This document shows, one piece after another, positions 1 to 17,325 of a stretch of DNA of 34,713 bases. The DNA is from a candidate division WOR-3 bacterium (GTDB lineage Bacteria; Hydrothermota; Hydrothermia; JBDRYB01), in contig JBMFOM010000009.1 of NCBI GenBank assembly GCA_049969615.1, forward strand, positions 1 to 34,713. Direction: 5' to 3'. The stretch's first letter is position 1. Each line of letters opens with the position of its first letter. Made by a program: the position numbers and the translations under genes. The notes under the pieces are model-generated. The model saw nothing but the letters and a program-made list of their open reading frames with translations, searched no databases and was not told the origin of the DNA.

Positions 1-77
1 ATCCTGGGGCATCCAGGCTTTGGCGTTCTGGTGAACTCCTGAGTCTCCCCAGGATAAATCCTGGGGCATCCAGGCTT
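1..77. repeat. REP-like palindromic tandem repeat (period 57 bp), cut by the window edge
   Basis: ATCCTGGGGCATCCAGGCTT occurs at 1-20 and 58-77. The perfect hairpin CCCCAGGAT-AA-ATCCTGGGG lies at 47-66, just downstream of the kinase stop codon. Confidence 0.6.
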
Positions 78-95
78 GGAGCTGGCAACCTAAAA

Positions 96-1352
96 CTATT
101 TCTTCTTCTCCTCCACCCTCGCGTATATCGCGGCTATTGCCCGGAACAGCACTGGTTCCCTGAGCACGGGTTGGCCGCTCCTGTATATTTGAAGCTCAAA
201 TTCTCCGATGGAGTTCTCGTCTGGTGCCTTGACCTGCCACAAGGCCTTTTGGGTCTCCTCACGGCCAAGGGAGATGTCGCGGAAAGGCCCGTCTATGACA
301 GTGAATTCCTTTGAGCGGGACCTCATGACGCACTGGAACTCGCCGTGGCCGGAGAGGGTTATCTCAACAGGGAACACCGCGCCCGGAGAAACCACGAGGG
401 GATACCTCATCGCCTTCATCTCCAGTATGGCGTCATCCCTTATCTCCAGACAGAGGGTCATCCTCGCCCTCCTGACCAATGGAAGGTCCATGTCGCAGAC
501 AAGGGCTTTTGATAAATAGAAGACCTCCTCGCCGCTCTCCTCAAATTCGGAGAGGAACTCGTCCGCAGAGCCGTAGCGTTGCTTTGGGTCCGTGGCCATG
601 GCCTTCTCGGCTATCTTGGCGAGCTCTTCTGGGACGCCGGGCGCAAGCTCCCTTATGGGGGTGAACTTGCCCAGGAATTTCATGGAATAGACGGTCTTTA
701 TGTCGCCCTTGAAAGGCGGCTCGCCCGTGAGCATCTCGTACATGACTGCTCCAAGGGCGTATATGTCAGATGTGGCATCTATGGCTTTCGGGTTCCTTAT
801 GTGCTCTGGCGAGAGATAAGCGGGACTTGGTAGCAATTGCGTTATTTTCAGCTTCTGAACGGCCTCCCTCGCGAGCTCGCCTATGCCGAAATCCGCCAGG
901 ACAGCGACGCCGTCCTCCTTGAACATGATGTTCTGGGGCTTGATGTCCTTATGGAGGATCCTGTTGGAGTGCGCGAACTTGAGCGCCTGGAGGATCTGAT
1001 ATGTGACCCTAACCGTATCCTCAGGGGTGAGTTTTCCGGCCTCAGTTAGCATCTGCTTCAGGCTGTAGGGATAGAAATCCATCACATAGTATATCCAGCG
1101 GCCGTCCTTGTCCAGGTCAAGAACCCAGGCCACATTTGGATGGGCCTCAAGCGCGGCGACTGCCTCCACCTCAGACACAAACCTGCGCAGGAGGCCGCGA
1201 TCCGCGGCAATATGCGGAAAAAGAACCTTTATGACGACATTCTTAGAGAGTGCCTTATGATATGCGAGATAAACCTCGGTTATGGTTCCCTTGCCAATAG
1301 GTTTCTTTATCTCGTATTTGCCAGAAAGAACACAGCCGGGTTCAATTGGCAA
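96..1352 (-). CDS. Hanks-type Ser/Thr protein kinase (non-RD, cytoplasmic) with a C-terminal beta-rich domain
   Basis: Motifs IGKG, VVIK, HKDIKPQN, DFG, YLSPE and DIYALG. No TM segment. TTG start. Confidence 0.93.
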   Translation of the reverse strand: MPIEPGCVLSGKYEIKKPIGKGTITEVYLAYHKALSKNVVIKVLFPHIAADRGLLRRFVSEVEAVAALEAHPNVAWVLDLDKDGRWIYYVMDFYPYSLKQMLTEAGKLTPEDTVRVTYQILQALKFAHSNRILHKDIKPQNIMFKEDGVAVLADFGIGELAREAVQKLKITQLLPSPAYLSPEHIRNPKAIDATSDIYALGAVMYEMLTGEPPFKGDIKTVYSMKFLGKFTPIRELAPGVPEELAKIAEKAMATDPKQRYGSADEFLSEFEESGEEVFYLSKALVCDMDLPLVRRARMTLCLEIRDDAILEMKAMRYPLVVSPGAVFPVEITLSGHGEFQCVMRSRSKEFTVIDGPFRDISLGREETQKALWQVKAPDENSIGEFELQIYRSGQPVLREPVLFRAIAAIYARVEEKKK

Positions 1353-1358
1353 CTTGTC

Positions 1359-2483
1359 TTACCTCCCCAAAATGAGCCAGAGGCCAATGGCCAGGATGGC
1401 TAGGACGAGAGCGATTATCAGGATGAGGATCATGATGCCGACCCAGGGTTTCCTGCCCTCAGGGGGGACGCTCCACTCCTCCTCGTATTCGGCGTCAGCC
1501 ACGGGGACGAACTGGGTTATTGTGAGGTCCATGTCCTCCTGCGGCTCGTATGTCTCCGGCTCAGGCTCAAATCCCAGCTCATCCTCCTTTTCGGTCGCGG
1601 ATTCGGGCTTTTTGAGTATGGGGACCTGAACTGGTGCTTCCACCTCAATCCAGCTCGGAGGATTGACTATGCCCAGGGAAGAGAGAACACGGAAGAGGTC
1701 ATAGGCGCTCTGGTAGCGGTCAGAAGGCAGTTTGGAAAGGCACTTGAGCACAACCTTCTCAAGGCTTCCAGGTATGCTTATCCCGAACGATGAGGGCAGC
1801 GGCGGTGGATCCTTGATTATTTTGAGCTGAAGGTTCAGTATGCTCTCGTCTTTGAACGGAACCCTACCAGTGAGCATCTCGTAGAGGACAACACCAACTG
1901 AGTAAATGTCAGAGCGAACATCGGCCCTTCCCCTCAGTTGTTCTGGCGACATGTAGTCCGGTGTGCCTGGCGTCACGGTAGCCTTTTGCTGGCGAACCGC
2001 CTCGCCCAGAACCGCTATGCCGAAATCAAACAGATATGCCTTTCCGTCGTCAGTGCAAAGAAGGTTGGATGGTTTTACATCACGGTGTATGACCCCTTTG
2101 TTGTGAGCGTATGCGAGCGCGGAAAGCAGTTGATATGCGTATAGGAGCGTTTCCGGCGGGGAGAGCCGGCCTCTCTCCCTGAGGATCTTGTCAAGGGTTA
2201 CCCCTGGTATGAACTGCATGACAATGAAAAGAAGCCCGTTCTCGTTTCCGAAGTCAAATATCTTTACTATGTTGGGATGATCTAGCTGGGCTGAGGTCTC
2301 GGCCTCCCGGAGGAACAGTTTCACGAAGGCCGGGTCATCGGAGAACTGCTTGGGCAAAACCTTTATGGCAACGGGCTTTCTAAGGAACGCGTGTTCCGCC
2401 CTATAGACAACGGCCATGCCTCCGCTTGAGAGCCTCTCAAGAACCCTGTATTTTCCAGCGAATATTCTCTCGGTCTCCTTCAT
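1359..2483 (-). CDS. Hanks-type Ser/Thr protein kinase (PknB-like catalytic domain) with a C-terminal TM anchor
   Basis: SGGMAVVY, VAIK, HRDVKPSN, DFG and GTPDYMSPE, then an acidic linker and a hydrophobic C-terminal helix (VGIMILILIIALVLAILAIGLWLIL). Confidence 0.95.
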   Translation of the reverse strand: MKETERIFAGKYRVLERLSSGGMAVVYRAEHAFLRKPVAIKVLPKQFSDDPAFVKLFLREAETSAQLDHPNIVKIFDFGNENGLLFIVMQFIPGVTLDKILRERGRLSPPETLLYAYQLLSALAYAHNKGVIHRDVKPSNLLCTDDGKAYLFDFGIAVLGEAVRQQKATVTPGTPDYMSPEQLRGRADVRSDIYSVGVVLYEMLTGRVPFKDESILNLQLKIIKDPPPLPSSFGISIPGSLEKVVLKCLSKLPSDRYQSAYDLFRVLSSLGIVNPPSWIEVEAPVQVPILKKPESATEKEDELGFEPEPETYEPQEDMDLTITQFVPVADAEYEEEWSVPPEGRKPWVGIMILILIIALVLAILAIGLWLILGR

Positions 2484-3259
2484 TTCACGAATATCCTGTC
2501 AAGCGAATAGACCAGCCTTGTGATGAAATTGCCTCCGGGGTCATCAACGCTGACTATCACGCCGGTTATGTTGTCGTCGCCCCCGCGTTCGTTTGCCAAC
2601 CTGATGAACTCCTCCATGGCCGCCCGTGGAGAGTTTTCCGAGAGGATTTTCCTGATCTCATCGTCGGTGAAGGAGCTGTAAAGCCCGTCGGTAACCAGGA
2701 GGAATATGTCGCCCCTCTTTACCCATCCGGTGTAAAAGCTAGGCTTTGGGTTTGGTCTGGAGCCGAGAGCCTTGGTCAGGATGTTCCGGGACTTATGGGT
2801 CCTGGCCTGTTCCTGAGTCAAATAGCCCTGCTTTACAAATATCTGGGCCTGGGTGTCGTCCGCGGTCAGCTGTCTGAGGGTGTGGCCCCTGAGCAGATAG
2901 ACCCTGGTGTCGCCAACATGAACTATATAATATCTGCCGCCCTTGAGGAGCAGGACTGTGAGGGTGGTCATCGCGCCCTGGGTCGCTGGCTTTGAGTGAG
3001 ACAGCTTATAGACATATAAGGCCGCTGTTCTGTATGCTCTGAGGAGGGTTCTTTCCACCGAAGAATTGGCCACGGATTGTTCCCTTATGAACCTGGAGAC
3101 TATCTCTATCGCGCCGCGGCTGGCCGCGTCTCCGGCCTTTCTCCCTCCGAGGCCATCAGCCACCACAAAGAGACCCAGGTTCGTATCAACGAGAAACGCG
3201 TCCTCGTTTTTGTTTCTCACCTTGCCAATATCGGATGAGCCAAAGGCCTTGCCCTTCAT
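2480..3259 (-). CDS. PP2C/PPM-family Ser/Thr phosphatase (Stp1/PrpC-like)
   Basis: RNKNED, VADGLGG, VGDTR, TDGL and GGDDNIT motifs. ATGA overlaps with both neighbours. Confidence 0.95.
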   Translation of the reverse strand: MKGKAFGSSDIGKVRNKNEDAFLVDTNLGLFVVADGLGGRKAGDAASRGAIEIVSRFIREQSVANSSVERTLLRAYRTAALYVYKLSHSKPATQGAMTTLTVLLLKGGRYYIVHVGDTRVYLLRGHTLRQLTADDTQAQIFVKQGYLTQEQARTHKSRNILTKALGSRPNPKPSFYTGWVKRGDIFLLVTDGLYSSFTDDEIRKILSENSPRAAMEEFIRLANERGGDDNITGVIVSVDDPGGNFITRLVYSLDRIFVK

Positions 3260-4833
3260 TTCACCCTCTTTCTCGCGAGGGGATTTGTCGGTTCAATCCT
3301 CGCTATGCGTTGCCAGAGCTCAGTGGCCTCATCCGAGCGGCCCTCTTTTTCTGCCTTAAGGGCCGCCAGCTCCATCTCCGCTAATGACTTGTAGTACAGA
3401 GCGGCCGGATCATCCGGATTTGATGAGAGTATTTTTTGTGCAATATCAAGCGTAGCCTGGGGATCAGCGTCACGGTAGTGTTTCTTGCGGATCTGTTCAA
3501 GGAGTACAGCTTCGCCCGAAGGGGATTTCTTGGCCGCGGAGGAGAGCGCGCTCAAGCATGAGTCCTTCATGGAAATCAGCTCCTGGTCCCACGGGAAAAC
3601 GGACAGAGCCATCTCGGCGAAGACCAGGGCCGAGGCCGGATCGCCAGCCGAAAGGGACGATCTAGCTCTTTCCTCGTATGTGAGGGAGAAGAGCCTGGCC
3701 GTCGCGTCATCCTTGATCCTGATTGCCTGCGGGTTGTCCGGAGACTCCGCGAGGGCCGCGTCTGCCTCGTGGATCGCGGCCCTATAGTCTCCGGCCTTCA
3801 GGTTATCCTCCGCGCTCAAGATATGTGTCCAGAGCCTCTGGTTCAGGGACGCTATTCTGAGGCCCTCCGCGATCTCCGGATCGTTCGGCGCCCTCTTTGA
3901 GGCTTCTTCAAGAAGCGAGGCCGACCTGGCATAAAGCCTGGCCTTGTCCTGTGGTTTCTGGGCCGCCTCGGCCTGAACTATGAGGAAGTGGGCCTTTTCC
4001 TTGTTTGTTCTGACCGAGTTGCCCGAGATGACAATCCAGGATACAACTGCCACGACGATCAGCAGGAGGGCACCTCCAACAACAGCCCACGCCCAGGGAC
4101 TCATCTTGATTTTTTTGGGTTTTCCCTCGTCCTCGGGAAACCCCTGGGTCTCGTAGATGAACAGTAGCTCGGTCTTGCCAACCCTGAGAACATCGCCGTG
4201 GGCCAAGGTTTTCTTTGGCATCACCCTGCCGTTTATCAATATGGGATTCTTTCCGCCGATGTCCTCAGCGATCACGGAGCCGTCTTCCCCCAAGTAGAAC
4301 TTTATGTGGTGCCTGGATACGAACTTGTCCGGCACGGAAAAATCCGCGGAGGGATCCCTTCCCAACACAGCGGTTCCGAGTATCTCAAAAGTCTTTCCCT
4401 GAGCTGGCCCGCCGGTTACCTGGAGGCGTGGAATTATCTCCGGTGGCAGTTCAAGGAACTCGGTGGGCGTTGTGTCAACATCAGGCTGAATGTCTTGTTT
4501 GATCGCCGACGTTTCTTCGGCGGGTTTTGTTTCCGGTTCCGGGACAGCATCCGTTGCCTCTGTTTCAAGCCTGATAATATAGCTCCCAACCTCTATGTCA
4601 TCTGAGGGTGAAATTATTCTGGGAAGGAGAACTCGCTGGTCGCCCATATAGACCCTTGCGTTCTCAGCTGGTTGAATCAAGAACCTGTCCCCGCGCCTCC
4701 TTATGATCGCTTCAAGGGGTTGTAGCCCCGGAAGGGACAACTCAACATCGTTACCCGTTCCTATGCGGATGAAATCACCGTTGAGCTCGTGTTCCTTAAC
4801 GGTTCCATCAGGTGAGGTAACGACCAGTCGCAT
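3256..4833 (-). CDS. FHA-domain membrane protein (degenerate FHA + FHA + TM + TPR-like repeats)
   Basis: The second FHA has LGRD...VSRHH...KNPILING...GDVLRVG. The N-terminal region is FHA-like but lacks the GR/SxxH residues. One TM helix (WAWAVVGGALLLIVVAVVSWIVI) precedes Ala-rich helical repeats ending in PxN/PxD. Confidence 0.85.
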   Translation of the reverse strand: MRLVVTSPDGTVKEHELNGDFIRIGTGNDVELSLPGLQPLEAIIRRRGDRFLIQPAENARVYMGDQRVLLPRIISPSDDIEVGSYIIRLETEATDAVPEPETKPAEETSAIKQDIQPDVDTTPTEFLELPPEIIPRLQVTGGPAQGKTFEILGTAVLGRDPSADFSVPDKFVSRHHIKFYLGEDGSVIAEDIGGKNPILINGRVMPKKTLAHGDVLRVGKTELLFIYETQGFPEDEGKPKKIKMSPWAWAVVGGALLLIVVAVVSWIVISGNSVRTNKEKAHFLIVQAEAAQKPQDKARLYARSASLLEEASKRAPNDPEIAEGLRIASLNQRLWTHILSAEDNLKAGDYRAAIHEADAALAESPDNPQAIRIKDDATARLFSLTYEERARSSLSAGDPASALVFAEMALSVFPWDQELISMKDSCLSALSSAAKKSPSGEAVLLEQIRKKHYRDADPQATLDIAQKILSSNPDDPAALYYKSLAEMELAALKAEKEGRSDEATELWQRIARIEPTNPLARKRVK

Positions 4834-4952
4834 CAGAAGTCCTCATCAGGGCCGGTGAGCCTCGTGTTGAAACGATACCGGCGAAACTCACACGGCCAGG
4901 AAAAGGCTTTCCTGGGTTCCGTGTGTATCTGTGCCTTTTTCAGGAGGTTCAT
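4833..4952 (-). CDS. Possible 39-aa small ORF spanning the intergenic gap (MNLLKKAQIHTEPRKAFSWPCEFRRYRFNTRLTGPDEDF)
   Basis: Its ATG (4952-4950) directly follows the TGA of the upstream gene, and its TGA (4835-4833) overlaps the next ATG as TGATG. No homology recognised. Confidence 0.3.
   Translation of the reverse strand: MNLLKKAQIHTEPRKAFSWPCEFRRYRFNTRLTGPDEDF
4889..4925. other. Strong RNA hairpin between the GTPase/two-component and kinase modules
   Basis: CACACGG-CCAGGAAA-aggc-TTTCCTGG-gtt-CCGTGTG forms a 15-bp stem with a 3-nt bulge and no clear U-tract. Confidence 0.55.
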
Positions 4953-5342
4953 TCAGGCAGACTGCCACTGGGTGAGGGCCTCGGAAAGGAGACGGTTGTA
5001 TTTCTTCAGGTATGCGAACAGAAGCCCAAGAGTCCCCTTTTCCTTATTGAGGACCACATGCAGATAGAATGGGGTGCCGTTTATCGGCGCGGTGAAAAAG
5101 TAAAACCTGGGCGTGATCCCCAGTATCTCAGCGTCGGATTCCGGCTCCCCCAAAGCGGCGATGGCCCTTTCCTGTGCCCTCATCAGTTCAACCGAATAGG
5201 CGGATGTTATGGCTATGTCGTAGTCGGGATCCAGCCTTGCCTCAGCGACGGTTAGCCCCTCTTCCCTCTCAACCAAGGCGGAGGCCACGAAACCCGGCAT
5301 TTCATTCTTCATGGCTTCAAGAAGCTCTTTTACCTTTTCCAT
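4953..5342 (-). CDS. Roadblock/LC7 (MglB-like, profilin-like fold) protein
   Basis: 129 aa with the pattern MPGFVASALVEREEGLTVA...LHVVLNKEKGTLGLL typical of Roadblock-fold proteins. In an operon with mglA. Confidence 0.7.
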   Translation of the reverse strand: MEKVKELLEAMKNEMPGFVASALVEREEGLTVAEARLDPDYDIAITSAYSVELMRAQERAIAALGEPESDAEILGITPRFYFFTAPINGTPFYLHVVLNKEKGTLGLLFAYLKKYNRLLSEALTQWQSA

Positions 5343-5345
5343 ACA

Positions 5346-6455
5346 TTAAACCTCCAGGAGCAGTTTTTCCATCTTGACGACAGATTTGACGAGTTCCACC
5401 CTGAGAAGCCCAGGGTTAACCCTAGAATCAGCCACCAGGGCCACGGTGAATTGCCCTCCCTTGAGCTGGCGCATGACGAAATTTGCCTTCTGGCTCGTGA
5501 AGAGCGCCTCCGATAGGTCACCCTTTCCGATTGAGTCCGAGGCCTGGTTGGCAGAGTTGATGGCACCCGAAAGCAGGGAAACGGCTCCGGGGCTGATCTC
5601 GCCAACACTAACCACTAGCCTACCGTCCGAATCCCAGATACAGACGCAATCAACCCCTTCGGTCATCAATGCCTTGAGCTCGGCCTCAAGCCCAACCCTT
5701 ATCTCATTGGGTATGACCCTTATCTCTTCCTTTAGGCCAACTGCCTCGGAGAAGCTCCAGGAATCCAGGTCAAACCCCTCTGTTTCGGCCGATTCGTCCT
5801 TTGCCGCGACTACTGACAGGAGAAGGTTATCAAGCGTCTTGTTTATGGTTCTGGCTGTGGTGGTCACACCTCTCCTCAGGCTAAAACTGCCTCCCTCCAT
5901 CTCAACTATGGCGCGGAAGGCCTCCTCACCAGAAAGCTTTCCCAGCTCCGCGTGCACGACATCGCCATCGGCAAAATAAATGCTACCGGAGCCGGCAGAG
6001 CCGGAAACCGCCACTGCCGCGGTTGACCTTTCCAGGGAAAGTATCTGTAGGACATCAACCAGCTTGAGGTCGCGGACAACACCCCTGAACCCCTCCTCCC
6101 TGGCCTTGGCCACAATGCTTATGAAAGCATCAAGATCAAAGGGTTTCTCTATGTATTCAACCGCGCCGCGCTCCGCGGTCTCCCTCATCAACTCCTCCGA
6201 GCCCCTGGCTGTCATCACAACTGCCTTCAGGTTGGGATATTTGCGTTTTGCTTCAACAATAAGGTCAAGCCCGCTCATGCCGGGCATCTTTATGTCCGTT
6301 ATGAGTATGTCAACGGGCTGGGTCTGGAGGGTTGATAGGGCGTTCTCGCCCGAAAGGGCCGTGAGCACATCGTATCCGGCTTTGATCAGGGTTCTGGAAA
6401 GACCCCAGATTATGTCCTCTTCGTCATCAACGAGCAAGACTTTAGGTGCGGCCAT
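5346..6455 (-). CDS. Response regulator: receiver + DUF4388 (PatA-N-like) + C-terminal Roadblock/LC7 domain
   Basis: Receiver motifs VDDEE, ITDIKMP, TARG and KPF. DUF4388-like FRGVVRDLKLVDVLQIL...GSIYFADGDVVHA...GEEAF. C-terminal IWDSDGRLV...VNPGLLRVEL resembles MglB. Confidence 0.85.
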   Translation of the reverse strand: MAAPKVLLVDDEEDIIWGLSRTLIKAGYDVLTALSGENALSTLQTQPVDILITDIKMPGMSGLDLIVEAKRKYPNLKAVVMTARGSEELMRETAERGAVEYIEKPFDLDAFISIVAKAREEGFRGVVRDLKLVDVLQILSLERSTAAVAVSGSAGSGSIYFADGDVVHAELGKLSGEEAFRAIVEMEGGSFSLRRGVTTTARTINKTLDNLLLSVVAAKDESAETEGFDLDSWSFSEAVGLKEEIRVIPNEIRVGLEAELKALMTEGVDCVCIWDSDGRLVVSVGEISPGAVSLLSGAINSANQASDSIGKGDLSEALFTSQKANFVMRQLKGGQFTVALVADSRVNPGLLRVELVKSVVKMEKLLLEV

Positions 6456-7785
6456 AACTACCCCCTTTGGCTGGTTTCAGATAGACTATGAATTCGGTTC
6501 CCTTCCCCGGTTCGGATTGAACCTCAACCATCCCACCATTCTCTTTTACAAGCTGGTATACCACGAACAGCCCCAGGCCGGTGCCCCCTTCCTTCGTAGT
6601 GTAAAAGGGATAAAAGACCTTCTGCTGGGCCTCGTGCGGAATCCCTGGCCCGTTATCCCTAACCTTCAGAAATATGTAAGGTTTACCCAGGTCAGGGTTG
6701 ACAATAGTGCTCTCTCCAGCCTCTATGCTTATTATGCCGCCGGTTTTCTCCATTACCTCTATTGAATTCAGTATGAGGTTCATTATTACCTGTTGTATCT
6801 GCGCTGGGTCAGCCGTGACCACAATCGCGGGGTTGATTGAAAGGTTTATTTTTATGCCGCTTCGCTCCGCGCGTCCCCGGAGGACAGCCACGACCTCCTC
6901 CACGACCGAGTGAAGGTTGAAGGGGACCGGCTGTGGCGCCTTGGGTTTCGCGTATGATAGCAATTTCTTTATCATGCTGTCAATTTTGTCTATTTGTTTC
7001 ATTATACGGGCCGCGTATTCCCTTTTCTCGGGCTCAAGCTCCTTGTAAAGCGTCTGCGCCATTATCCTCACCCCCGCGAGCGGATTTTTTACCTCATGGG
7101 CTATGGACGCGGCGATTATACCGAGAGAGGAGAGTCTGTCCACCATGGTCATCATCTGATGCATCTTCTTGATCTCGGTGATGTCCTTGAAAAGAACAGT
7201 CCAGCCCACCATGCCCGGCTCGTGCTTGAATGGTTTAGCGGACATGGTGTAGACCCTGTCGTCAACCCTGATCTCCTCGTCAGAGCCGGAGGATTTCTTC
7301 GCGGCCTCAAGTAGCCTTGGGATAGCCGATAGGTGTTGTTGGGCATAGCGATTCGCATAAAGCACGCGTCCCCGCTTGTCCAGGAGGACGACCCCTGTGT
7401 CAAGCCCCTCAAGTATCTCCTCGGCGAGATATGACTTGTGCCGTGGGACCAGGCTGGCCCTGAATCCCCTCCCGTATCCGGGAAGCTCAACGGGTATGAC
7501 CTTGAGGTGGCCGCCTATGATAACGCCCTCCCTGGTCAAGAGGGGAACCTTTATTGAAAGGATTCCGCCAGCCCTGAACGCGGCCTCAAGCGCGGAGGAT
7601 ATAGCCTGGCGGTTCTGCTCCGGAAATAGCGTGAGAAAGCTCTTTCCCCTCACTTCCGACGCCTCCCATCCGCAAACATCGGCTATCTTTCTGTTCACGA
7701 ATATAACAGTGAAATCAGGCCCTATTTCAAAAAGGGCCTCGGATGTTATATCCAGAAGGTCAACCAGTTCCTCCTTCACATTCAA
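6442..7785 (-). CDS. Cytoplasmic PAS-PAS sensor histidine kinase
   Basis: Two PAS-like segments. H-box AHEVKNPL, N-box NLILNS, DNGPGI, PFYTTK and GTGLGL. No TM. Confidence 0.93.
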   Translation of the reverse strand: MNVKEELVDLLDITSEALFEIGPDFTVIFVNRKIADVCGWEASEVRGKSFLTLFPEQNRQAISSALEAAFRAGGILSIKVPLLTREGVIIGGHLKVIPVELPGYGRGFRASLVPRHKSYLAEEILEGLDTGVVLLDKRGRVLYANRYAQQHLSAIPRLLEAAKKSSGSDEEIRVDDRVYTMSAKPFKHEPGMVGWTVLFKDITEIKKMHQMMTMVDRLSSLGIIAASIAHEVKNPLAGVRIMAQTLYKELEPEKREYAARIMKQIDKIDSMIKKLLSYAKPKAPQPVPFNLHSVVEEVVAVLRGRAERSGIKINLSINPAIVVTADPAQIQQVIMNLILNSIEVMEKTGGIISIEAGESTIVNPDLGKPYIFLKVRDNGPGIPHEAQQKVFYPFYTTKEGGTGLGLFVVYQLVKENGGMVEVQSEPGKGTEFIVYLKPAKGGSYGRT

Positions 7786-7786
7786 T

Positions 7787-8380
7787 TTACTTTACCCCCG
7801 CTTTCTCTTTTATGTCCTTTAGGACCGTTTTTGTTATGAGATCAAGGGTCTGGAACACGCCCACGCCATTGATAGCTATGGATTCAACATGCGGAACGTT
7901 CCACTTGTTCAGCTTGGCCTCCAGTTCGGAAACCGGCAGGGCGTCCGAAGCATCGCGCTTGTTATACTGCATTACCAGGGGCAAACGGTCAATGGGATTG
8001 TTGTAGTCCCTGAGCGTCTGAACCATCTCCACGAGTATCTGTAGGTTGGATTCCATTCTTGAGGCGGATGAATCCGCGACATAAACCAGGCCATCAGCGC
8101 CCCGGAGAACCAGACGCCTTGAGGCCTTGTAGAAAAACTGGCCCGGGACCGTATATAGGTGGAAGCGAACCTTGAATCCACCAGGAAGTTTTATTTCCAC
8201 AGGCAAAAAATCAAAGAACAGCGTTCGCTCACCCTTTGTGTCCACCGAAACGAGCTCACCCCTGTGGTTTGGGTTGAGCTTGTCAAAGATGTATTTCAGG
8301 TTGGTGGTTTTGCCGGAAAGGGCCGGGCCATAGTAGACTATCTTGCAGTTTATTTCCTTTTTAACGCTATCTATTAACAT
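7787..8380 (-). CDS. mglA: MglA-family small Ras-like GTPase
   Basis: KIVYYGPALSGKTTN P-loop, ERTLFFDFL switch I (intrinsic Arg finger), YTVPGQ switch II and NKRD G4. Confidence 0.93.
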   Translation of the reverse strand: MLIDSVKKEINCKIVYYGPALSGKTTNLKYIFDKLNPNHRGELVSVDTKGERTLFFDFLPVEIKLPGGFKVRFHLYTVPGQFFYKASRRLVLRGADGLVYVADSSASRMESNLQILVEMVQTLRDYNNPIDRLPLVMQYNKRDASDALPVSELEAKLNKWNVPHVESIAINGVGVFQTLDLITKTVLKDIKEKAGVK

Positions 8381-8471
8381 TTTGCCCTACCCGGGAACTC
8401 CACAGAGGATCTCTCGGAAGCCGCACGATAACAGCGAGAGGTTTTGGCTCTCGTTATATTCGGGACAATCT

Positions 8472-8930
8472 TCATTTCTCCGTCCCCTCTTCGCCGATGA
8501 GGTCTGTGAACGAGAAACCCTCCAGGAGTGAGAGATCGGTGCCAAAGATCTCTGAGACATCAACATGAGTGGATATTACCTTGGATATCTCAGTTGCGGC
8601 CTTGCGAACCTCAACCAGGATGAGGCCGAGGGGCGCCTCTGACATGACCGAGACCGCCAGGACTCCTTCTTGGCCGGCCCCCGCTATGACGACCATCTTG
8701 TCCTCGCCCTTTATGTATATCTCGCGTAGGATCCCGCCCTTTATCTCTTCCAGGACATTTTCGCCTAGGCCCAGCAGGGCGGCCGCCATCGCACCGAAAG
8801 ACTCCTCGTTCGTGCCCTGTTCCAGGGCCGAGGCCAGGGAGATTCCCTCAACATTTATGACGGCCGCGGCCTTTATGTGCGGTGTCTTCCTGATCAGGTT
8901 TTTCAGGATGGTTTCTACCTGCGATTCCAT
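8472..8930 (-). CDS. mglB: Roadblock/LC7 domain protein (MglB-like)
   Basis: AAVINVEGISLAS...GAMAAALLGLGE...APLGLILVEVR matches the Roadblock/LC7 pattern. Directly upstream of mglA, with a GGAGGT RBS. Confidence 0.8.
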   Translation of the reverse strand: MESQVETILKNLIRKTPHIKAAAVINVEGISLASALEQGTNEESFGAMAAALLGLGENVLEEIKGGILREIYIKGEDKMVVIAGAGQEGVLAVSVMSEAPLGLILVEVRKAATEISKVISTHVDVSEIFGTDLSLLEGFSFTDLIGEEGTEK

Positions 8931-8955
8931 ATTATACCTCCATCTCTAGGTATAA

Positions 8956-8984
8956 ATAATACAGGAAAACGCCTGGCGTGTCAA
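8956..8984 (-). promoter_or_regulatory. Sigma70-type promoter of the mglBA signalling operon
   Basis: Minus strand TTGACA-17 nt-TATTAT. Confidence 0.65.
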
Positions 8985-9139
8985 GCACTTTCCCAAAAGA
9001 TATAACTACCACCGCGATATTATAAACCCCACGAGCGGCCCTGCTCCACCATTTTTCTGGGATGGCAATCGGCGAACCCTGAAAGATGGATGCTTCCGGG
9101 GTGATCGCAGGACAACAATTTTGGACTCGCTTATTACAA

Positions 9140-9213
9140 TCGGGGCGCCCGGACTTGAACCGGGGGCCTCATGGTCCCGAACCATGCGCGCTACCAATCT
9201 GCGCTACGCCCCG
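9140..9213 (-). tRNA. tRNA-Pro(CGG), CCA not encoded
   Basis: Reverse complement is CGGGGCGTAGCGCAGATTGGTAGCGCGCATGGTTCGGGACCATGAGGCCCCCGGTTCAAGTCCGGGCGCCCCGA. Acceptor stem CGGGGCG/CGCCCCG, anticodon arm CATGG-TTCGGGA-CCATG, T-loop GGTTCAAGTCC. Confidence 0.97.
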
Positions 9214-9222
9214 AAAGGATAA

Positions 9223-9251
9223 ATTATAACCCACTTCCTGCGCGGGATCAA
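9223..9251 (-). promoter_or_regulatory. Promoter of tRNA-Pro (TTGATC cassette copy 1)
   Basis: TTGATC-CCGCGCAGGAAGTGGGT-TATAAT, with 9 nt between the -10 box and the tRNA 5' end. Confidence 0.75.
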
Positions 9252-9317
9252 ATTTTTGTAGTTGGGAAGACCGGACAGATCTGAGGCAATGGTTATAAGT
9301 CCTTATGGGGCCTGTCC

Positions 9318-9656
9318 CTATTTTACCTCTATGAAGGGCTTTATTGCCTCCAGTTTCTTCTCGTTCATACCCTTTACTTCAAGGAGCTCGTCCATTGTGT
9401 TAAACCCGCTTCTTTCCTGCCTGAGTTGGATTATATTCTCGGCCGTCTTTGGCCCTATTCCCGGAAGGTTCTCCAGCTCCGCGGCCGTCGCGGTGTTCAG
9501 GTTGACCTTCTTGATGTAGGTCTCCTCTGTCCTGGGGAAGTTATCCGGACTTATTGGCCTTGAGTGTAGACCCAGTCTTGCCAGGAACAAGATTAGAGTT
9601 CCGAGTAGAAACGAACCGAGCGCGAACACAAGCGCCCTTTTCTCGCCAGGGTTCAC
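9318..9656 (-). CDS. comEA: ComEA-family helix-hairpin-helix DNA-binding protein
   Basis: N-terminal TM, then KVNLNTATAAELENLPGIGPKTAENII...LLEVKGM. Start placed at GTG 9656 (6 nt after TATAAT) rather than 9692. Confidence 0.85.
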   Translation of the reverse strand: MNPGEKRALVFALGSFLLGTLILFLARLGLHSRPISPDNFPRTEETYIKKVNLNTATAAELENLPGIGPKTAENIIQLRQERSGFNTMDELLEVKGMNEKKLEAIKPFIEVK

Positions 9657-9780
9657 GCTTAGATTATAAGGAAACCGTGGAGCCGGGTTCACTTGAAATT
9701 CCCATGAACCCTACCCTATGATCCTTGTTCTCTTTCTGCATGGGGTAATTTATACGCCCAAAGCTTTATAATAATCAGGC

Positions 9781-10239
9781 TTGAAGACTATTGTCCTCTG
9801 TCTCGGAAACGACATCATGGCCGACGACGCGGTTGGCATCCGGGTTGCGGAGGCCTTAGAGAAGAAGCTTAACGGCCTGGCTGACCTGAAGACCACCTCG
9901 GTCTCAGGGCTTTACCTCCTGGACTACCTGGATGGCTATGACAGGGCTGTTATCGTTGATGCGTTTACGCCTTCCGATCCGGTCCCCGGGCGGATAAGGG
10001 TCTTTGACATGGTTCCATCGGATAAACCCCCCGTTGGGCCCTCTCCTCACTACATAAGCCTTTCGGACGCGCTCACGGTGGGCAAGAGGCTCGGATTGAC
10101 ATTGCCAGCAAGGATAACGGTCGTGGGAATAGAGGTTTTTGACCCGTTCACCATAGGCGGCCAGATGCATCCCGATGTCTGGGCCTCGGTTCCCCTGGCG
10201 GCCGAAACTGTTCTGGAGCTCCTCAGATGCATGAAGTGA
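9781..10239 (+). CDS. Hydrogenase maturation protease (HycI/HyaD family)
   Basis: LGNDIMADDAVG, VIVDA and a conserved His (SPH). Adjacent to hypA/hypB. Confidence 0.9.
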   Translation: MKTIVLCLGNDIMADDAVGIRVAEALEKKLNGLADLKTTSVSGLYLLDYLDGYDRAVIVDAFTPSDPVPGRIRVFDMVPSDKPPVGPSPHYISLSDALTVGKRLGLTLPARITVVGIEVFDPFTIGGQMHPDVWASVPLAAETVLELLRCMK

Positions 10240-10574
10240 CCGTCTGCGATAGCCTCCTTGATCTCGTTGAGGAAACAGCAAAAAAGCACCACGCCCGGCG
10301 GGTTTCGGTTGTTAGGGTCAGGATAGGGGAGATCTCCGGGGTTGTTCCGGAATTGCTCCAGCACGCTTTTGAGGTCCTGGCGCCGGAGAGGCAGTTGACT
10401 ATGGGCGCCTCCTTGATACTGGAAAAGGTGAGGCCCCTCGCGCACTGCGAGGCCTGCGGCCAGGATTTTGAGCCAACGGAATATGTGTTTATATGCCCGG
10501 CCTGCGGTTCCGGAAGGACAAGGCTCCTGGCCGGGGACGAGTTGAGCCTGGATAGGATTGAAATGGAGGTATGA
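10227..10574 (+). CDS. hypA: Hydrogenase nickel metallochaperone HypA
   Basis: N-terminal MHE, CEAC and CPAC zinc motifs, GDEL. Confidence 0.95.
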   Translation: MHEVTVCDSLLDLVEETAKKHHARRVSVVRVRIGEISGVVPELLQHAFEVLAPERQLTMGASLILEKVRPLAHCEACGQDFEPTEYVFICPACGSGRTRLLAGDELSLDRIEMEV

Positions 10575-10575
10575 C

Positions 10576-11250
10576 ATGTGCGAGGAATGCGGATGCGAAG
10601 AGGGAAACCAGGTGGTTGATGTTGGCGAGGATATACTCAAGGAAAACCTGAGATACGCGGCCCATAACCGGGAACACCTTGATGAGCACGGAGTCTTTTC
10701 GGTGGAGCTCATCTCCGCGCCCGGCTCCGGCAAGACATCCCTAATAGAGGCCCTCTCTGATCACTTGAAAGACATCGGTATGGCTGTGATTGAGGGGGAC
10801 ATAGAGACCGCGAGGGATGCTGAACGCATTAGGGCAAAAGGAATCCCCGCTTTCCAGCTGACCACTGGCGGCGCTTGCCACCTTGACGCGAGGCTCGTCC
10901 ACGGCGCTTTCCACCACCTTCCCTTGGACGGCGTAAAGCTCCTTTTCATTGAGAATGTCGGGAACCTGGTCTGCCCCGCGGCCTTCCGGCTAGGAGCGCA
11001 CCAGCGCTGGGTCATTCTCTCGGTCCCGGAAGGAGACGACAAACCGGCCAAATATCCCCGCGCTTTCCGTGAGGCCTCGGTTTTCATCATCAACAAAACA
11101 GACCTCCTCCCACACATGGAATTTGACCTTGAGCGGGTTAAGAACGAGGCGCTTTCCCTGAACCCGTATCTCAGGTTCTTCGCGGTTTCTGCCAGGACAG
11201 GGGAGGGTATGCCGGATCTCGCGGCATACCTGAGAGATCATATTCGTTAG
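10576..11250 (+). CDS. hypB: Hydrogenase nickel incorporation GTPase HypB
   Basis: MCEECGC N-terminal metal site, PGSGKT, IEGD, ACHLDA, ENVGNLVCPA and NKTD. GGAGGT RBS at 10565-10570 supports the 10576 start. Confidence 0.95.
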   Translation: MCEECGCEEGNQVVDVGEDILKENLRYAAHNREHLDEHGVFSVELISAPGSGKTSLIEALSDHLKDIGMAVIEGDIETARDAERIRAKGIPAFQLTTGGACHLDARLVHGAFHHLPLDGVKLLFIENVGNLVCPAAFRLGAHQRWVILSVPEGDDKPAKYPRAFREASVFIINKTDLLPHMEFDLERVKNEALSLNPYLRFFAVSARTGEGMPDLAAYLRDHIR

Positions 11251-11258
11251 CTAGCCAT

Positions 11259-11284
11259 AAAAAAGGGGCCGAGAGGCCCCCTTT
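11259..11284 (-). terminator. Rho-independent terminator, probably bidirectional
   Basis: AAAAAA-GGGGCC-GAGA-GGCCCC-CTTT lies between convergent hypB and the CTD gene and gives a U6 tract on the minus strand. Confidence 0.85.
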
Positions 11285-11306
11285 GGTTTTCCAGGGAACT
11301 ATCCCC

Positions 11307-12971: not shown

Positions 12972-13011
12972 CTTTTTTACCTCCTATGGTATAAGGTTAT
13001 GTTCGCATATT

Positions 13012-13950
13012 TTAAAGTCCGCCCTCTATCTTGTTCAAGATCAGGGGGGTGTTGTCCGGGTCAAAGCACCAGGTGAAGTCGGTCCGGTTGGTAAAGGTCC
13101 AGCCACCGTATGGGAACGTCGGATCAACCTGATTCAGCATGTCAACAGCGTTTGCATACCATCCCTGTCTGTAGTACAGATAAGCGAGGATGTACGCTAG
13201 CTTTGTGTTATCCAGCTGGAGGCTGGTCCTTACCCTGTCTGGAACCGGATCAACCAGGTTAGCGTTGCCCAGGTAGCCAGCCAGGCCGTAGCAGATTCCC
13301 CTGGTGTAGTTCCCGCGCTCCGCCAGATATGTGAGTGCCTCGCCAGCGAAGCCATACCAGAGAACCTCCTGCAGTTCTTCGGGATGGAAGTAAGCGTAGG
13401 AGTAAGAGACAATACTCGTATCAGGCGTGGTGGTTATCGGCAGGTCTTGCTTGATATAGATCTTCGTGCCTTTTACGCCTATCACATTCGCGGGCTTGTA
13501 TTGCACATCAAAGCTGAACAACGATAGCAGGGTATCTGGAGGCAGGTTGAAGATCCATATTCTTGACGCGCCATACCAGGATGTGTCCACGTAGCCTGAA
13601 TCCACCCAGTTCTCATCCGTGAGGTCCACGCCGCCCAGGGTATCCTTGACTATGGTGGAGGCCTCCAGGATGCTTATGAGCGCGAGCGCTCCGTGGGCAT
13701 CGGAGTAGCTTGAGAGCTGGGAAGATGAGAAGCCCTGGCCGAGCCTGGCCTCGGAGTTGAACGCGTCCACCACGACCACGGAGTCAAAAGTGGCCAGGGA
13801 GGATTCGTAGTTTCCGGCCCTGTAGCGGGCCCATGCCGTGTCCAGGAGCTCCTCTATCTCGGCCGGTTCGTCTGGTTTCGGACCCTCGCCGCATCCAAAG
13901 AACATGCTCACTATGAGGGCAAGGGGAAGGAGGAAGGTTATCTTTTTCAT
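13012..13950 (-). CDS. Lipoprotein with TPR-like helices
   Basis: MKK + hydrophobic core + FFGC lipobox. TPR-like AWARYRAGNYESSLATF...ARLGQGFS and a second TPR-like helix pair near the C-terminus. Confidence 0.75.
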   Translation of the reverse strand: MKKITFLLPLALIVSMFFGCGEGPKPDEPAEIEELLDTAWARYRAGNYESSLATFDSVVVVDAFNSEARLGQGFSSSQLSSYSDAHGALALISILEASTIVKDTLGGVDLTDENWVDSGYVDTSWYGASRIWIFNLPPDTLLSLFSFDVQYKPANVIGVKGTKIYIKQDLPITTTPDTSIVSYSYAYFHPEELQEVLWYGFAGEALTYLAERGNYTRGICYGLAGYLGNANLVDPVPDRVRTSLQLDNTKLAYILAYLYYRQGWYANAVDMLNQVDPTFPYGGWTFTNRTDFTWCFDPDNTPLILNKIEGGL

Positions 13951-13953
13951 TTG

Positions 13954-16311: not shown

Positions 16312-16323
16312 GTTTTTACCTCC

Positions 16324-17313: not shown

Positions 17314-17325
17314 GTTTGGCCTCCT

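Follow-up and report, generated by a model that had tools for sequence, protein, structure and literature searches.

A composite signalling operon in a WOR-3 bacterium, proposed to have been assembled stepwise around a small Roadblock adaptor

We propose that nine co-directional minus-strand genes (positions 96-8930) of a candidate division WOR-3 bacterium form a composite signalling operon that was assembled stepwise, to judge from its relatives, around a small adaptor. In order, the genes encode a Roadblock protein (g1), a group-1 MglA (g2), a soluble PAS histidine kinase (g3), a REC-PATAN-Roadblock protein (g4), a 129-aa Roadblock protein (g5), an FHA-TM-TPR protein (g6), a PP2C phosphatase (g7), a tail-anchored Hanks kinase (g8) and a soluble Hanks kinase (g9). 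The window (the whole 34,713-nt stretch analysed) begins at a contig end, 95 nt past g9. Linkage of these genes exceeds chance. The explanation that we favour, at about even chances, is an MglA switch under two-component control, with a Ser/Thr module grafted on through g5.

Table 1. Genes and other features of the operon region (coordinates within the window).
Feature	Position	Strand	Description	Basis or remark
Promoter	8956..8984	-	Sigma-70-like, TTGACA-17-TATTAT	Upstream of g1; 11/12 positions match
g1	8472..8930	-	Roadblock/LC7 protein, 152 aa; MglB-position gene	Pfam Robl_LC7 1.9e-13
g1-g2 spacer	8381..8471	-	91 nt	Shared by G000 and G001 but not by G002; unique in genome
g2	7787..8380	-	Group-1 MglA small GTPase, 197 aa	Pfam Arf/Ras weak; structure match
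g3	6442..7785	-	PAS-PAS-HisKA-HATPase histidine kinase, soluble, 447 aa	Pfam: PAS x2, HisKA, HATPase
g4	5346..6455	-	REC-PATAN (DUF4388)-acidic linker-MglB-like Roadblock, 369 aa	Pfam REC 1.2e-25, DUF4388 7.7e-16
g5	4953..5342	-	Divergent Roadblock protein, 129 aa	Profile and fold
g5-g6 spacer	4834..4952	-	119 nt, structured	Single copy in genome
g6	3256..4833	-	FHA-like-FHA-TM-TPR protein, 525 aa	Pfam FHA and TPR
g7	2480..3259	-	PP2C phosphatase, 259 aa	Pfam PP2C_2
g8	1359..2483	-	Hanks-type Ser/Thr kinase, C-terminal membrane anchor, 374 aa	Pkinase 6.6e-50
g9	96..1352	-	Soluble Hanks-type kinase, non-RD (HKD), 418 aa	Pkinase 4.8e-47
Terminator-like hairpin	60..74	-	22 nt past g9 stop	Weak

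Each ORF lies where a preliminary description of this DNA had placed it, and the gene content and order given there were borne out by ORFs, Pfam, hhalign and fold matches. The genes were said to be mostly overlapping or nearly abutting, and the intergenic junctions indeed measure -14 to +6 nt, except at g1/g2 (91 nt) and g5/g6 (119 nt). All three Roadblock domains claimed were recovered, in g1 by Pfam and in the g4 C terminus and g5 by hhalign and structure matches. The promoter described before the first gene was also found, being joint best (three sites tied at 11/12) among 14 promoter-like sites, compared with 6.2 +/- 2.2 in shuffles. Its -35 and -10 elements are kept in two congeneric genomes, G001 (TTGACA/TATCAT) and G002 (TTGACC/TATTAT), with differing sequence further upstream. 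Motif inspection of the operon proteins showed all phosphoacceptor and catalytic motifs to be present.

The GTPase g2 is the sole MglA of the genome and matches M. xanthus MglA (5ymx; E 6e-62, residues 5-195). Its motifs GPxxxGKT, E51-R52-T53, T77-V-P-G-Q81 and N140-K-R-D are conserved in a 25-sequence alignment (V78 in 23/25). Published criteria for group 1 are an intrinsic Arg and TVPGQ (PMC4316618); with an Arg beside the switch-I Thr and TVPGQ, g2 is assigned to this group on its motifs. The best solved-structure matches of g1 are the Roadblock proteins 7f8m (8e-22) and 9jue, and its acidic C-terminal tail is conserved across 8 sequences; it scores only 18.3 bits against the NCBIfam MglB equivalog (cut-off 200).

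The histidine kinase g3 has an H-box (HEVKNP at 230) and G boxes, and a hydropathy scan found no TM segment in it. In g4, the receiver residues D10, D11, D54, T82 and K104 are present, and the C-terminal ~120 aa, missed by Pfam, are Roadblock-like (hhalign 96.9%, E 2e-10), with M. xanthus MglB as the best solved match (E 1.7e-8); in the AF2 model three parts are folded and residues 220-246 are disordered. PATAN genes are known as neighbours of mglA and mglB (PMC4316618; 10.1101/2021.06.11.447907), and five REC...MglB-like fusions are recorded in the former account. In relatives the unit has a tenth gene, FIST, which is displaced in the window's genome; it stands directly upstream of the core in families f4, f8, f9 and f12 and in G001.

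The small protein g5 had no match in Pfam or NCBIfam. Compared with the g1 family by hhalign, it gave 90% probability (E 1.7e-6), and its AF2 model (pLDDT 92.4) matched Thermus and Myxococcus MglB (TM 0.83-0.84, E about 1e-7), by which g5 has an MglB/Roadblock fold. A PP2C gene adjoins g5 in every genome locus that holds a g5 orthologue (19 loci) and in 36/37 metagenome loci, the last contig stopping after g5. Three positions in g5, T31, T/S46 and S50, are candidate phosphosites: they do not vary in 19/19 triad-linked copies (triad: small Roadblock protein, PP2C and kinase) and are P, P and L/F in g5-like proteins of triad-less families, a contrast drawn from related, non-independent sequences with only 4 in the second group.

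The remaining genes encode a Ser/Thr set. A single TM (251-269, hydropathy scan) lies in g6, in which GR158, SRHH173 and NG201 are present; beyond what had been described, its N terminus is a second, degenerate FHA-like domain (E 0.004), and a paralogue (601 aa, 28% identity) is encoded on contig C31. The phosphatase g7 contains DGLGG35 and GGDDN226 and scores 213 bits against the NCBIfam Stp1/IreP model (cut-off 230). The kinase g8 has VAIK38, HRDVKPSN133, DFG153 and SPE179 and a TM at 348-366 of its 374 residues (hydropathy scan), and g9 has VVIK39, HKDIKPQN134 and DFG154; the same scan found no TM segment in g9, and its C-terminal domain of ~130 aa gave no Pfam match and no Atlas score >0.80.

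The distribution of these genes in relatives falls into three layers. The first is a class-wide core of FIST, histidine kinase, REC-PATAN-MglB-like fusion and MglA; genes for the last three are adjacent in 16/20 loci around g4 relatives (spanning f1, f4, f5, f6, f8, f9 and f12), and one further contig, the 17th, ends before any MglA. The second layer, the triad of small Roadblock protein, PP2C and kinase, occurs in three families only (22/22 genomes): g5 orthologues (E<1e-30) are limited to f1 (3/3), f2 (12/12) and f8 (7/7), and both g7-type PP2C and FHA-TM-TPR relatives follow the same distribution (22/22 genomes each). The third layer, the FHA-TM-TPR protein and second kinase, is located in the operon only in the window's genus. 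The nine-gene block is intact and in the same order in 3/3 genomes of the genus, with both flanks differing among them; it is complete in three metagenome contigs (two with FIST upstream), and two more contigs, cut by their ends, are consistent with it. In f8 a shorter single operon was found in 7/7 genomes (FIST-Roadblock-MglA-HK-REC/PATAN/Roadblock-Roadblock-PP2C, with or without a kinase). The module tree groups f1 with f8 (92% support), whereas sequence identity places the g5 and kinase of f1 nearer to f2. The preliminary description had made its one-module claim depend on the GTPase and kinase blocks staying linked in related genomes; they do so in the genus (3/3) and, with PP2C and with or without a kinase, in f8 (7/7), but are unlinked in every f2 locus fetched, so that the claim is supported in part. 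Its term "eukaryote-like three-tier module" overstates the case; three modules, each of an ordinary bacterial kind, have accreted here.

The analysis shows which genes are present and in what order, their folds and catalytic motifs, and how they are distributed among relatives; the interactions, direction of signalling and phosphosites set out below, as well as co-transcription, are inferences. In the first layer, g3, which in relatives would partner the FIST sensor protein encoded just upstream, would phosphorylate the receiver domain of g4, the output of which is predicted to be PATAN and then the MglB-like Roadblock domain. Phosphorylation would alter how this Roadblock domain engages MglA, with dimerisation, or pairing with g5 or g1, as the possible means; the effect would be either to set the rate of GAP activity or to sequester MglA-GTP. 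As for g1, it would be a free-standing MglB-type partner. In the second layer, which has the phosphatase g7 and the membrane-anchored kinase g8, g5 would be both substrate and adaptor, its phosphorylation state at T31, T/S46 or S50 deciding whether it enters the Roadblock platform; by this route a Ser/Thr signal from the membrane side would reach the GTPase switch. The third layer would add g6, a copy of an FHA-TM-TPR reader of phosphothreonine, and g9, a second kinase, which is soluble.

A possible but clearly less probable explanation is that two independent systems are neighbours, one of MglA, histidine kinase and REC-PATAN-Roadblock protein and the other a general Stk/Stp-type set (g5, PP2C and kinase, with FHA) that, as in Firmicutes and Actinobacteria, would act on many substrates and not be tied to MglA in particular; that the two lie side by side in f1 and f8 would then be a historical accident kept by inertia. 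Consistent with this, f2 holds all the parts unlinked in each locus fetched: the Roadblock-PP2C-kinase triad stands alone in 10/10 loci, the FIST-Roadblock-MglA-HK block in 4/4 (in one of which gene picking missed the Roadblock) and the REC-PATAN-Roadblock gene in 3/3, which indicates that operon linkage is not required. Part of f8 lacks the adjacent kinase after PP2C (G020 and 7 metagenome contigs that extend 2 kb or more beyond it), and FHA-TM-TPR relatives are encoded away from the operon in f2 and f8. Within NCBIfam the closest models are Stp1/IreP and the kinase domain of Stk1/PknB. The genome has no PP2C_2 match other than g7 and, besides g8 and g9, one further Hanks kinase, so that g7, g8 and g9 may serve many targets. 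No kinase or PP2C fusion was found among 61 longer proteins with a g5-profile C terminus. Independence is, however, at odds with the Roadblock/MglB fold of g5 and with the company kept by its kin. Of the same 61 longer proteins, 38 are fused to PATAN (9 of these also to REC) and 3 more to REC alone; distant g5-like genes adjoin mglA in f4 and f9, and yet g5 itself always stays with PP2C. Furthermore, g4 and g5 lie 1-3 nt apart in f1 and f8 alike, and the nine-gene block is unbroken despite three different flank rearrangements.

We consider it unlikely that the operon is a classical motility and polarity module of the Myxococcus or Thermus kind, in which MglA-MglB would sort type IV pilus or gliding machinery between poles, with the histidine kinase, response regulator and kinases feeding into reversals. 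Links to pili exist among relatives: f3, of the same class, has the order Roadblock-mglA-cinA-pilB-pilB-pilT, and the gene for a PilT-like ATPase is two genes away from mglA in f4. PATAN regulators are reported to bind the pilus motor of Synechocystis (10.1101/2021.06.11.447907), and genes for a PATAN-TPR protein and an 806-aa TPR protein adjoin the FIST gene. Nevertheless, a search for the T2SSE family (PilB/PilT/GspE) returned 0 matches in the window's genome (98% complete) and was positive in 13/14 control genomes; given no PilB/PilT-type ATPase, type IV pili are excluded as the output in this genome, a result that bears on pili and not on a type-IX-linked form of motility. An anti-phage defence island is highly improbable: g8 and g9 match PADLOC PD-T4-6 models (E 1e-90 and 1e-70), but these matches span the generic kinase domain only, 6/9 proteins have no PADLOC match, base composition is not unusual, and conservation is vertical over three families, in fixed order and with core signalling genes.

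The closest known systems are M. xanthus MglA/MglB (with RomR, RomX, MglC and RomY) and Thermus thermophilus MglAB, which share the group-1 MglA features (intrinsic Arg finger, TVPGQ) and a Roadblock gene directly upstream of mglA. Also shared are extra Roadblock paralogues (compare MglC) and a receiver-domain protein tied to the switch (compare RomR). Unlike in M. xanthus, receiver, PATAN and MglB-like Roadblock domains are here joined in one polypeptide, the input is an adjacently encoded histidine kinase rather than the Frz chemosensory system, and the operon includes PP2C, Hanks kinase and FHA genes in a genome without PilB/PilT. The masK gene of M. xanthus encodes a Hanks-type protein kinase. 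It is the last gene of the masABK operon, which adjoins the mgl operon, and its mutation suppresses an mgl allele; as far as is described, MasK comes without a paired PP2C, FHA reader or Roadblock protein (PMC3546991). RomR is reported to bind MglC through its C-terminal helix (PMC12719032).

Actinobacterial conservons (CvnA-D), as described, likewise combine a histidine kinase, a Roadblock protein and an MglA-family GTPase in one operon (PMC4316618). Their GTPases are of group 2 (GTPGQ, no Arg finger) and g2 is assigned to group 1, the kinase CvnA is membrane-bound with HAMP and g3 is soluble with PAS, a CvnC-type protein is absent here, and conservons are without the receiver domain, PATAN, PP2C and Hanks kinase that all occur in this operon. 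The masABK-mgl neighbourhood and the conservons are partial precedents.

A PATAN domain coupled to a receiver, in a setting of cell polarity, is likewise found in cyanobacterial PatA, PixG and PixE; here the order is REC-PATAN rather than PATAN-REC (as the name PatA implies), a Roadblock domain is added, and the known partner of PatA-type regulators, the pilus motor, is absent from the window's genome. The Ser/Thr set resembles Stk1/Stp1 (PknB/PstP) in that its PP2C and Hanks kinase genes overlap side by side and are accompanied by one for an FHA-TM protein, and in its best NCBIfam matches, both under equivalog cut-offs, and differs in having no PASTA domain and a tail-anchored g8 with almost no outside part. 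The proposed logic, a small adaptor with phosphorylation set by a kinase and a PP2C, would be that of RsbU/V/W partner switching, although the adaptor is Roadblock rather than STAS and the kinase Hanks-type rather than GHKL.

Further promoter-like sites lie inside g3 and g6, by which separate transcripts are possible. The regional count of terminator-like sites was not above shuffles. The g5-g6 spacer is an insertion private to the window's genome (absent in G001 and G002) and is predicted to fold at -42.9 kcal/mol (z -3.39), with 0/200 shuffles folding equally well.

The nine open reading frames of the operon (g1–g9, numbered in transcription order) lie head to tail, confirming the co-directional run reported in the preliminary description; neighbouring genes overlap by 4–14 nt or are separated by 1–6 nt, with the exception of g1/g2 (91 nt) and g5/g6 (119 nt). 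The promoter that had been read ahead of them (TTGACA-17-TATTAT) is likewise present, 26 nt ahead of the g1 start. It matches the motif at 11 of 12 positions and ranks top in the region jointly with two other 11-of-12 sites, and promoter-like sites also occur within the operon (at 7142, 6983 and 4601). A tRNA-Pro(CGG) gene just upstream of the operon was the sole match in an Rfam scan of positions 1–12000. The host assembly comprises 2.06 Mb and is 98% complete; its contig, whose first 34.7 kb form the window, begins 95 nt past the g9 stop codon. The g5/g6 spacer is present in this genome (G000) and absent from the two congeneric genomes (G001 and G002), and has a predicted fold of −42.9 kcal/mol (z −3.39), with no T run after it and no Rfam match; checked as a potential repeat or mobile element, the spacer proved to be single copy. 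The g1/g2 spacer is missing from G002.

Features of the operon and its surroundings (TM, transmembrane segment).
Feature	Position	Strand	Description
g1	8472–8930	minus	Roadblock, 152 aa
g2	7787–8380	minus	small GTPase, 197 aa
g3	6442–7785	minus	PAS-PAS-HisKA-HATPase kinase, 447 aa
g4	5346–6455	minus	REC-DUF4388 and ~145 further residues, 369 aa
g5	4953–5342	minus	129 aa, without Pfam or NCBIfam match
g6	3256–4833	minus	FHA-TPR, 525 aa
g7	2480–3259	minus	PP2C, 259 aa
g8	1359–2483	minus	Pkinase, 374 aa
g9	96–1352	minus	Pkinase, 418 aa
Whole operon	96–8930	minus	g1–g9
g5/g6 spacer	4834–4952		119 nt
g1 C-terminal motif	8472–8570	minus	acidic, past the Roadblock fold
Promoter site	8984..8956	minus	TTGACA-17-TATTAT
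Synteny break	9057–9700		G000 against G001
tRNA-Pro(CGG)	9139–9214	minus	tRNA gene
ComEA-like gene	9318–9692	minus	helix-hairpin-helix
HycI-like gene	9781–10239	plus	hydrogenase maturation protease
GTPase gene	10558–11250	plus	CobW/HypB/UreG-type
Co-directional run	11307–24907	minus	ExbB to weakly type-IX-sorting-domain proteins

Both congeneric genomes contain all nine genes in identical order, but the flanks differ. In G001, a 16S rRNA gene follows g9, and g1 is preceded by genes for a FIST protein, OsmC, a PATAN-TPR protein, an 806-aa TPR protein and a single-domain receiver. G000 carries this row on contig C2 (C2:38001–49656), where it ends in 16S at the contig end; the contig break therefore sits at the rRNA gene, and in G000 FIST no longer adjoins g1. 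The G002 flanks correspond to still other contigs, and among their genes is one for a phage terminase large subunit (locus L023, 13258–14547) approximately 850 nt upstream of the operon, which suggests a prophage or prophage remnant at this flank. Upstream of g1, similarity between G000 and G001 ends near window position 9056, and the promoter block lies within the conserved stretch in all three genomes. The same nine genes and promoter have thus been kept as one unit through three rearrangements. Immediately beyond the break, G000 has the tRNA-Pro gene and the ComEA-like gene at the place of FIST in G001. The genes of the C2 row, contiguous with the operon in G001, may encode partners or effectors of the MglA module; among them, the PATAN-TPR and TPR neighbours of FIST are candidate effectors purely by analogy.

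MglA/MglB is the reference model for bacterial Ras-like switches, and what is known of its inputs comes almost entirely from Myxococcus. By its sequence, g2 is a true MglA of group 1: it matches MglA of M. xanthus at E 6e-62 and that of T. thermophilus at 1.5e-59, the next best match being Rab27B (1.9e-6). The P-loop (G18-P-x-x-x-G-K-T25) and N140-K-R-D143 are invariant across 25 aligned sequences, as are E51-R52-T53, T77, P79, G80 and Q81, and V78 is present in 23 of the 25. An Arg adjoining the switch-I Thr and TVPGQ in G3 are among the group-1 marks given by Wuichet and Sogaard-Andersen 2014 (PMC4316618). By contrast, the GTPase of the actinobacterial conservons (CvnABCD) belongs to group 2, with GTPGQ and a Thr for the Arg finger, where g2 has TVPGQ and R52; neither the CvnC-type protein nor the membrane HAMP histidine kinase of conservons is among the nine proteins, the histidine kinase g3 having no transmembrane segment. 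Coupling of MglA to Roadblock domains is found within four genes, g1 lying directly upstream of g2 and two further Roadblock domains two and three genes downstream.

These two further domains, in g5 and the C terminus of g4, had been proposed for regions devoid of Pfam matches, and are now borne out by hhalign, fold models and structure matches. The Roadblock assignment of g1 follows from its Robl_LC7 Pfam match (1.9e-13); against the curated MglB equivalog of NCBIfam (NF052242), g1 reached 18.3 bits (cut-off, 200) and g5 gave no match. An alignment of g5 relatives matched the g1 family from end to end (90% probability, E 1.7e-6). Modelled with AF2 (pLDDT 92.4), g5 consists of a helix, two strands, a helix, three strands and a helix, and this model matches MglB of Thermus and Myxococcus (TM 0.83–0.84, E ~1e-7); a profile search of the PDB with only g5 found Roadblock entries weakly (E 0.3), and the assignment was settled by the fold search. 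The last ~120 residues of g4, aligned with 17 relatives, matched the g1 family (96.9%, E 2e-10) and the g5 family (96.2%), and their best match among solved structures is M. xanthus MglB (E 1.7e-8). The g4 model comprises a receiver (REC), PATAN, a disordered acidic stretch (220–246) and a Roadblock-like domain (250–366). In other families of the class, the PATAN–Roadblock linker is a Glu-rich low-complexity stretch of ~100–300 residues (alignment A3, columns ~230–590); it is short in f1 (the family of this genus), f2 and f8. All eight g1-type proteins carry an acidic C-terminal motif past the Roadblock fold, with G130, D132, E137, S140, L144 and E147 invariant, which is reminiscent of the regulatory C-terminal helix of MglB.

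The two-component pair g3/g4, whose genes overlap by 14 nt, has the expected residues: HEVKNP (at 230), DNGPG (377) and GTGLG (401) in the histidine kinase, and D10, D11, D54, T82 and K104 in the receiver of g4. DUF4388 (PATAN; 7.7e-16, residues 125–222) stands between the receiver (6–115) and the Roadblock domain, whereas in PatA-type regulators PATAN is N-terminal to the receiver. The source names of close g4 homologues go no further than 'response regulator' or 'CheY-like chemotaxis protein'; two of these homologues come from 'candidate division WOR-3'. On the Ser/Thr side, the two kinases (170 and 161 bits), PP2C_2 (68.8 bits) and FHA (62.1 bits) all passed the Pfam gathering scores. The kinases g8 and g9 contain VAIK/VVIK, HRD (g8) or HKD (g9), DFG and SPE, the phosphatase g7 contains DGLGG and GGDDN, and the FHA domain of g6 contains GR, SRHH and NG—motifs that we take to define catalysis or pThr binding. 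One transmembrane segment each was predicted for g6 (251–269) and, at its very end, for g8 (348–366 of 374), and none for g3 and g9. Unlike Stk1/PknB, g8 (325 bits; cut-off, 450) has no PASTA domain and only about eight residues past the membrane segment, and g7 remains below the cut-off for Stp1/IreP (213 against 230). A second FHA-like match, a weak one (E 0.004), lies in the N-terminal 91 residues of g6; for the C-terminal domain of g9, Pfam gave no match and Atlas feature scores (≤0.80) are at chance level. A 601-aa FHA-TM-TPR paralogue with 28% identity to g6 is encoded elsewhere in the genome and such proteins also occur in relatives, which makes g6 look like a copy that the operon has recruited. 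Besides g8 and g9, the genome encodes one more Hanks kinase (902 aa; contig C1, L146:2604–5312), which is fused to a UvrD-type helicase.

We compared the locus across the 64 genomes and 12 families (f1–f12) of the class, fetching the DNA of 20 loci around g4 relatives, 13 around g5 relatives and 9 around mglA and annotating them with the window's proteins and Pfam. MglA was found in 49 of the 64 genomes, and with this query in none of families f7 and f11. Families f3 and f10 have a plain Roadblock–mglA pair, followed in f3 by cinA and three pilus ATPase genes. One such f3 locus (G004, L140 9060–16156; Roadblock, mglA, cinA, two PilB-like genes and one PilT-like gene) is a classical Mgl–pilus neighbourhood within the same class. 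The order in f4, f5, f9 and f12 is FIST-HK-[REC-PATAN-long acidic linker-Roadblock]-MglA with no g1-type gene, and in f4 and f9 a distant g5-like gene adjoins mglA on the opposite strand; f6 has HK-g4-g1-MglA. All seven f8 genomes have FIST-g1-MglA-HK-g4-g5-PP2C, with a tail-anchored kinase gene next in five, not in G020 and at a position hidden by a contig end in G025. The f1 operon has the f8 order plus two genes: that for FHA-TM-TPR, which separates g5 from PP2C, and a further kinase gene at the end. In f2 there are three separate loci: g5-PP2C-kinase (10 of 10 fetched), FIST-g1-MglA-HK (4 of 4, g1 having escaped gene calling in one) and g4 alone (3 of 3). The linkage of the kinase block with the mglA/HK block that had been claimed is thus seen in f8 and f1 and is absent from the f2 loci fetched.

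Orthologues of g5 (E<1e-30), PP2C proteins of the g7 type (E≤1e-63) and FHA-TM-TPR proteins of 570–608 aa each occur in exactly the same genomes (f1, 3/3; f2, 12/12; f8, 7/7), the other families having distant 500-aa PP2C proteins or none, and three f3 genomes a small FHA protein. Judged from these sequence matches, g5 is the centre of a Ser/Thr set that forms a unit specific to this clade. An exhaustive g5 profile search of 1.84 billion representatives returned one cluster at E<1e-30 (the family itself), 23 at E<1e-10 and 491 at E<1e-3. The 61 proteins longer than 180 aa among the best 150 matches were scanned for domains; PATAN stands ahead of the g5-like domain in 38 of them, nine of which also have REC, and the remainder have REC alone (3), no Pfam domain (17) or other domains (3). 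From the 38 PATAN fusions it follows that g5 belongs to a Roadblock subfamily normally following PATAN, as in g4; even so, g5 orthologues are always found with PP2C. A Rosetta-stone test found a kinase or PP2C domain fused to none of the 61. Three g5 positions (T31, T/S46 and S50) set the triad-linked copies apart (the triad being the small Roadblock gene, PP2C and kinase): all 19 of these copies have Ser/Thr there, where four g5-like proteins of triad-less families show P, P and L/F. The model places the three positions where strand 2 begins and in the opening turns of helix 2. Given that these sequences are related, the count is suggestive only.

Metagenomic contigs scanned with 19 close g5 sequences yielded 37 loci that fall into the genome groups. 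Five are f1-like (three complete, two of these with FIST directly upstream, and two cut by contig ends), one is intermediate (72% identity; its sequence stops past g5), 15 contain just the triad and are f2-like (three stop within the PP2C gene) and 16 are f8-like, with the kinase gene present in five, lacking in seven with at least 2 kb of downstream sequence and undetermined in four. A contig profile scan with the full g4 alignment (receiver-domain patterns only, outside the window's own class) gave 80 loci, mostly unrelated response regulators. Three contain full-length matches (Calditrichaceae, a delta-proteobacterial MAG and Desulfobulbales) and four more match REC-PATAN only; none of these seven loci has mglA within its flank.

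A tree of the module (MglA, HK and REC-PATAN; 852 columns, LG+G4), which was rooted on f6 by choice and is not a species tree, joins f1 and f8 (92%) and leaves f2, on a long branch, outside this pair (100%). Sequence identity, unlike this tree, sets g5, g1 and the kinase of f1 nearer to their f2 than to their f8 counterparts. Two histories remain: one ancestral fusion followed by break-up in f2, or fusion after f2 had split off. HK/g4 adjacency is broken in f2 yet intact in every other g4-bearing family, so f2 fragmented at least part of the locus. The three-tier module of the preliminary description is real and was described accurately; the block is a conserved signalling operon built stepwise across families rather than one ancient machine of three tiers.

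How these parts might work together can be stated as a model that combines a two-component MglA switch with a Ser/Thr module bridged by g5; taken as a whole, we give it an even chance, the two-component-controlled MglA core being much more secure than the g5 bridge. The soluble PAS kinase g3, probably informed by the FIST protein, would phosphorylate D54 of g4, and phosphorylation would alter the state of the MglB-like domain of g4 towards MglA, in the simplest version through receiver dimerization that brings two Roadblock domains together. In families without g1, the g4 fusion and the g5-like protein would be the only Roadblock partners near mglA. In f1, f2 and f8, the kinase and PP2C would set the phosphorylation state of g5 and thereby decide its entry into the Roadblock platform; in this genus, the FHA-TM-TPR reader and the soluble kinase would add a membrane scaffold and a second writer. 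A complex prediction of MglA, the g4 Roadblock domain and g5 scored 0.27 for g5 as a partner, against a mark of 0.32, a value that speaks neither for nor against this pairing.

Instead, the Ser/Thr genes may constitute a general kinase–phosphatase system with no special tie to MglA, which we regard as somewhat unlikely: g7 is the sole PP2C_2 match of the genome, g8 and g9 are two of its three Hanks kinases, and linkage to mglA is dispensable in f2. More speculative still, and on balance unlikely, is the narrower proposal of a new partner-switching unit, made up of g5, PP2C and the tail-anchored Hanks kinase, in which a Roadblock-fold protein takes the place of STAS. Reversible phosphorylation of T31, T/S46 or S50, close to where helix 2 of g5 begins, would then govern the completion of a heteromeric Roadblock platform, with the MglB-like domain of the REC-PATAN regulator as the partner of g5. 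A Myxococcus-like motility module would fit the neighbours of mglA in f3 and f4, but seems improbable here as the window's genome lacks pilus ATPases: this 98%-complete genome with a group-1 MglA gave no match to T2SSE-family ATPases (PilB/PilT/GspE), for which 13 of 14 control genomes were positive, so type IV pili are out as an output. A defence island, for which only PD-T4-6 matches to a generic kinase domain speak, is highly improbable.

If the partner-switching proposal is correct, one bacterial Ras-like GTPase would integrate His-Asp and Ser/Thr signals at its GAP; no earlier case would be known of a prokaryotic small-GTPase regulator controlled by Ser/Thr phosphorylation, and a lineage without type IV pili would point to an unrecognized output of MglA. 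The locus offers a compact switch whose input is hard-wired through a sensor, a histidine kinase and the fusion of a receiver to an MglB-like domain, and a phosphorylation-controlled GAP would be directly testable with four small soluble proteins. The conserved Roadblock–PP2C–kinase triad is a candidate route from Hanks kinases to the GTPase, and the presence of MglA where pilus ATPases are lacking raises the question of what else MglA controls. Its stepwise assembly provides natural with/without comparisons, the parts being separate in some families, merged in others and extended here.

Elements of this architecture have precedents. PMC4316618 describes group-1 and group-5 mglA genes occasionally near PATAN genes, mglB near PATAN (citing Makarova 2006) and five proteins with a receiver and an MglB-like C terminus, none of them studied; the PATAN–Mgl neighbourhood is repeated in a Synechocystis preprint. 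In M. xanthus, masK, the last gene of the masABK operon, lies next to mgl (PMC3546991), and RomR binds the Roadblock protein MglC (PMC12719032). We found no publication that connects PP2C and Hanks kinases with either MglA or Roadblock proteins, the MasK work excepted (the supplementary neighbourhood tables of PMC4316618 may hold similar loci), and none on a Roadblock–PP2C–Hanks kinase unit, FIST with MglA, or MglA in WOR-3. Compared with the published work that could be found, two points are new: the use across the class of FIST-HK-[REC-PATAN-MglB-like] as a unit that gives MglA a hard-wired input, and the Roadblock–PP2C–kinase triad joining the MglA core.

Next to the operon, the HycI-like and CobW/HypB/UreG-type genes point to hydrogenase maturation functions. 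The co-directional run beyond them encodes ExbB, two ExbD proteins, TonB, a 1019-aa TonB-dependent receptor (CarboxypepD_reg) and an unknown 751-aa protein, and continues with a protein that resembles PorV weakly (below the cut-off) and two whose matches to type-IX secretion C-terminal sorting domains are weak, a TPR protein being encoded between these two. The type-IX sorting tails, PorV-like match and TonB-type receptors fit an organism of the FCB superphylum.
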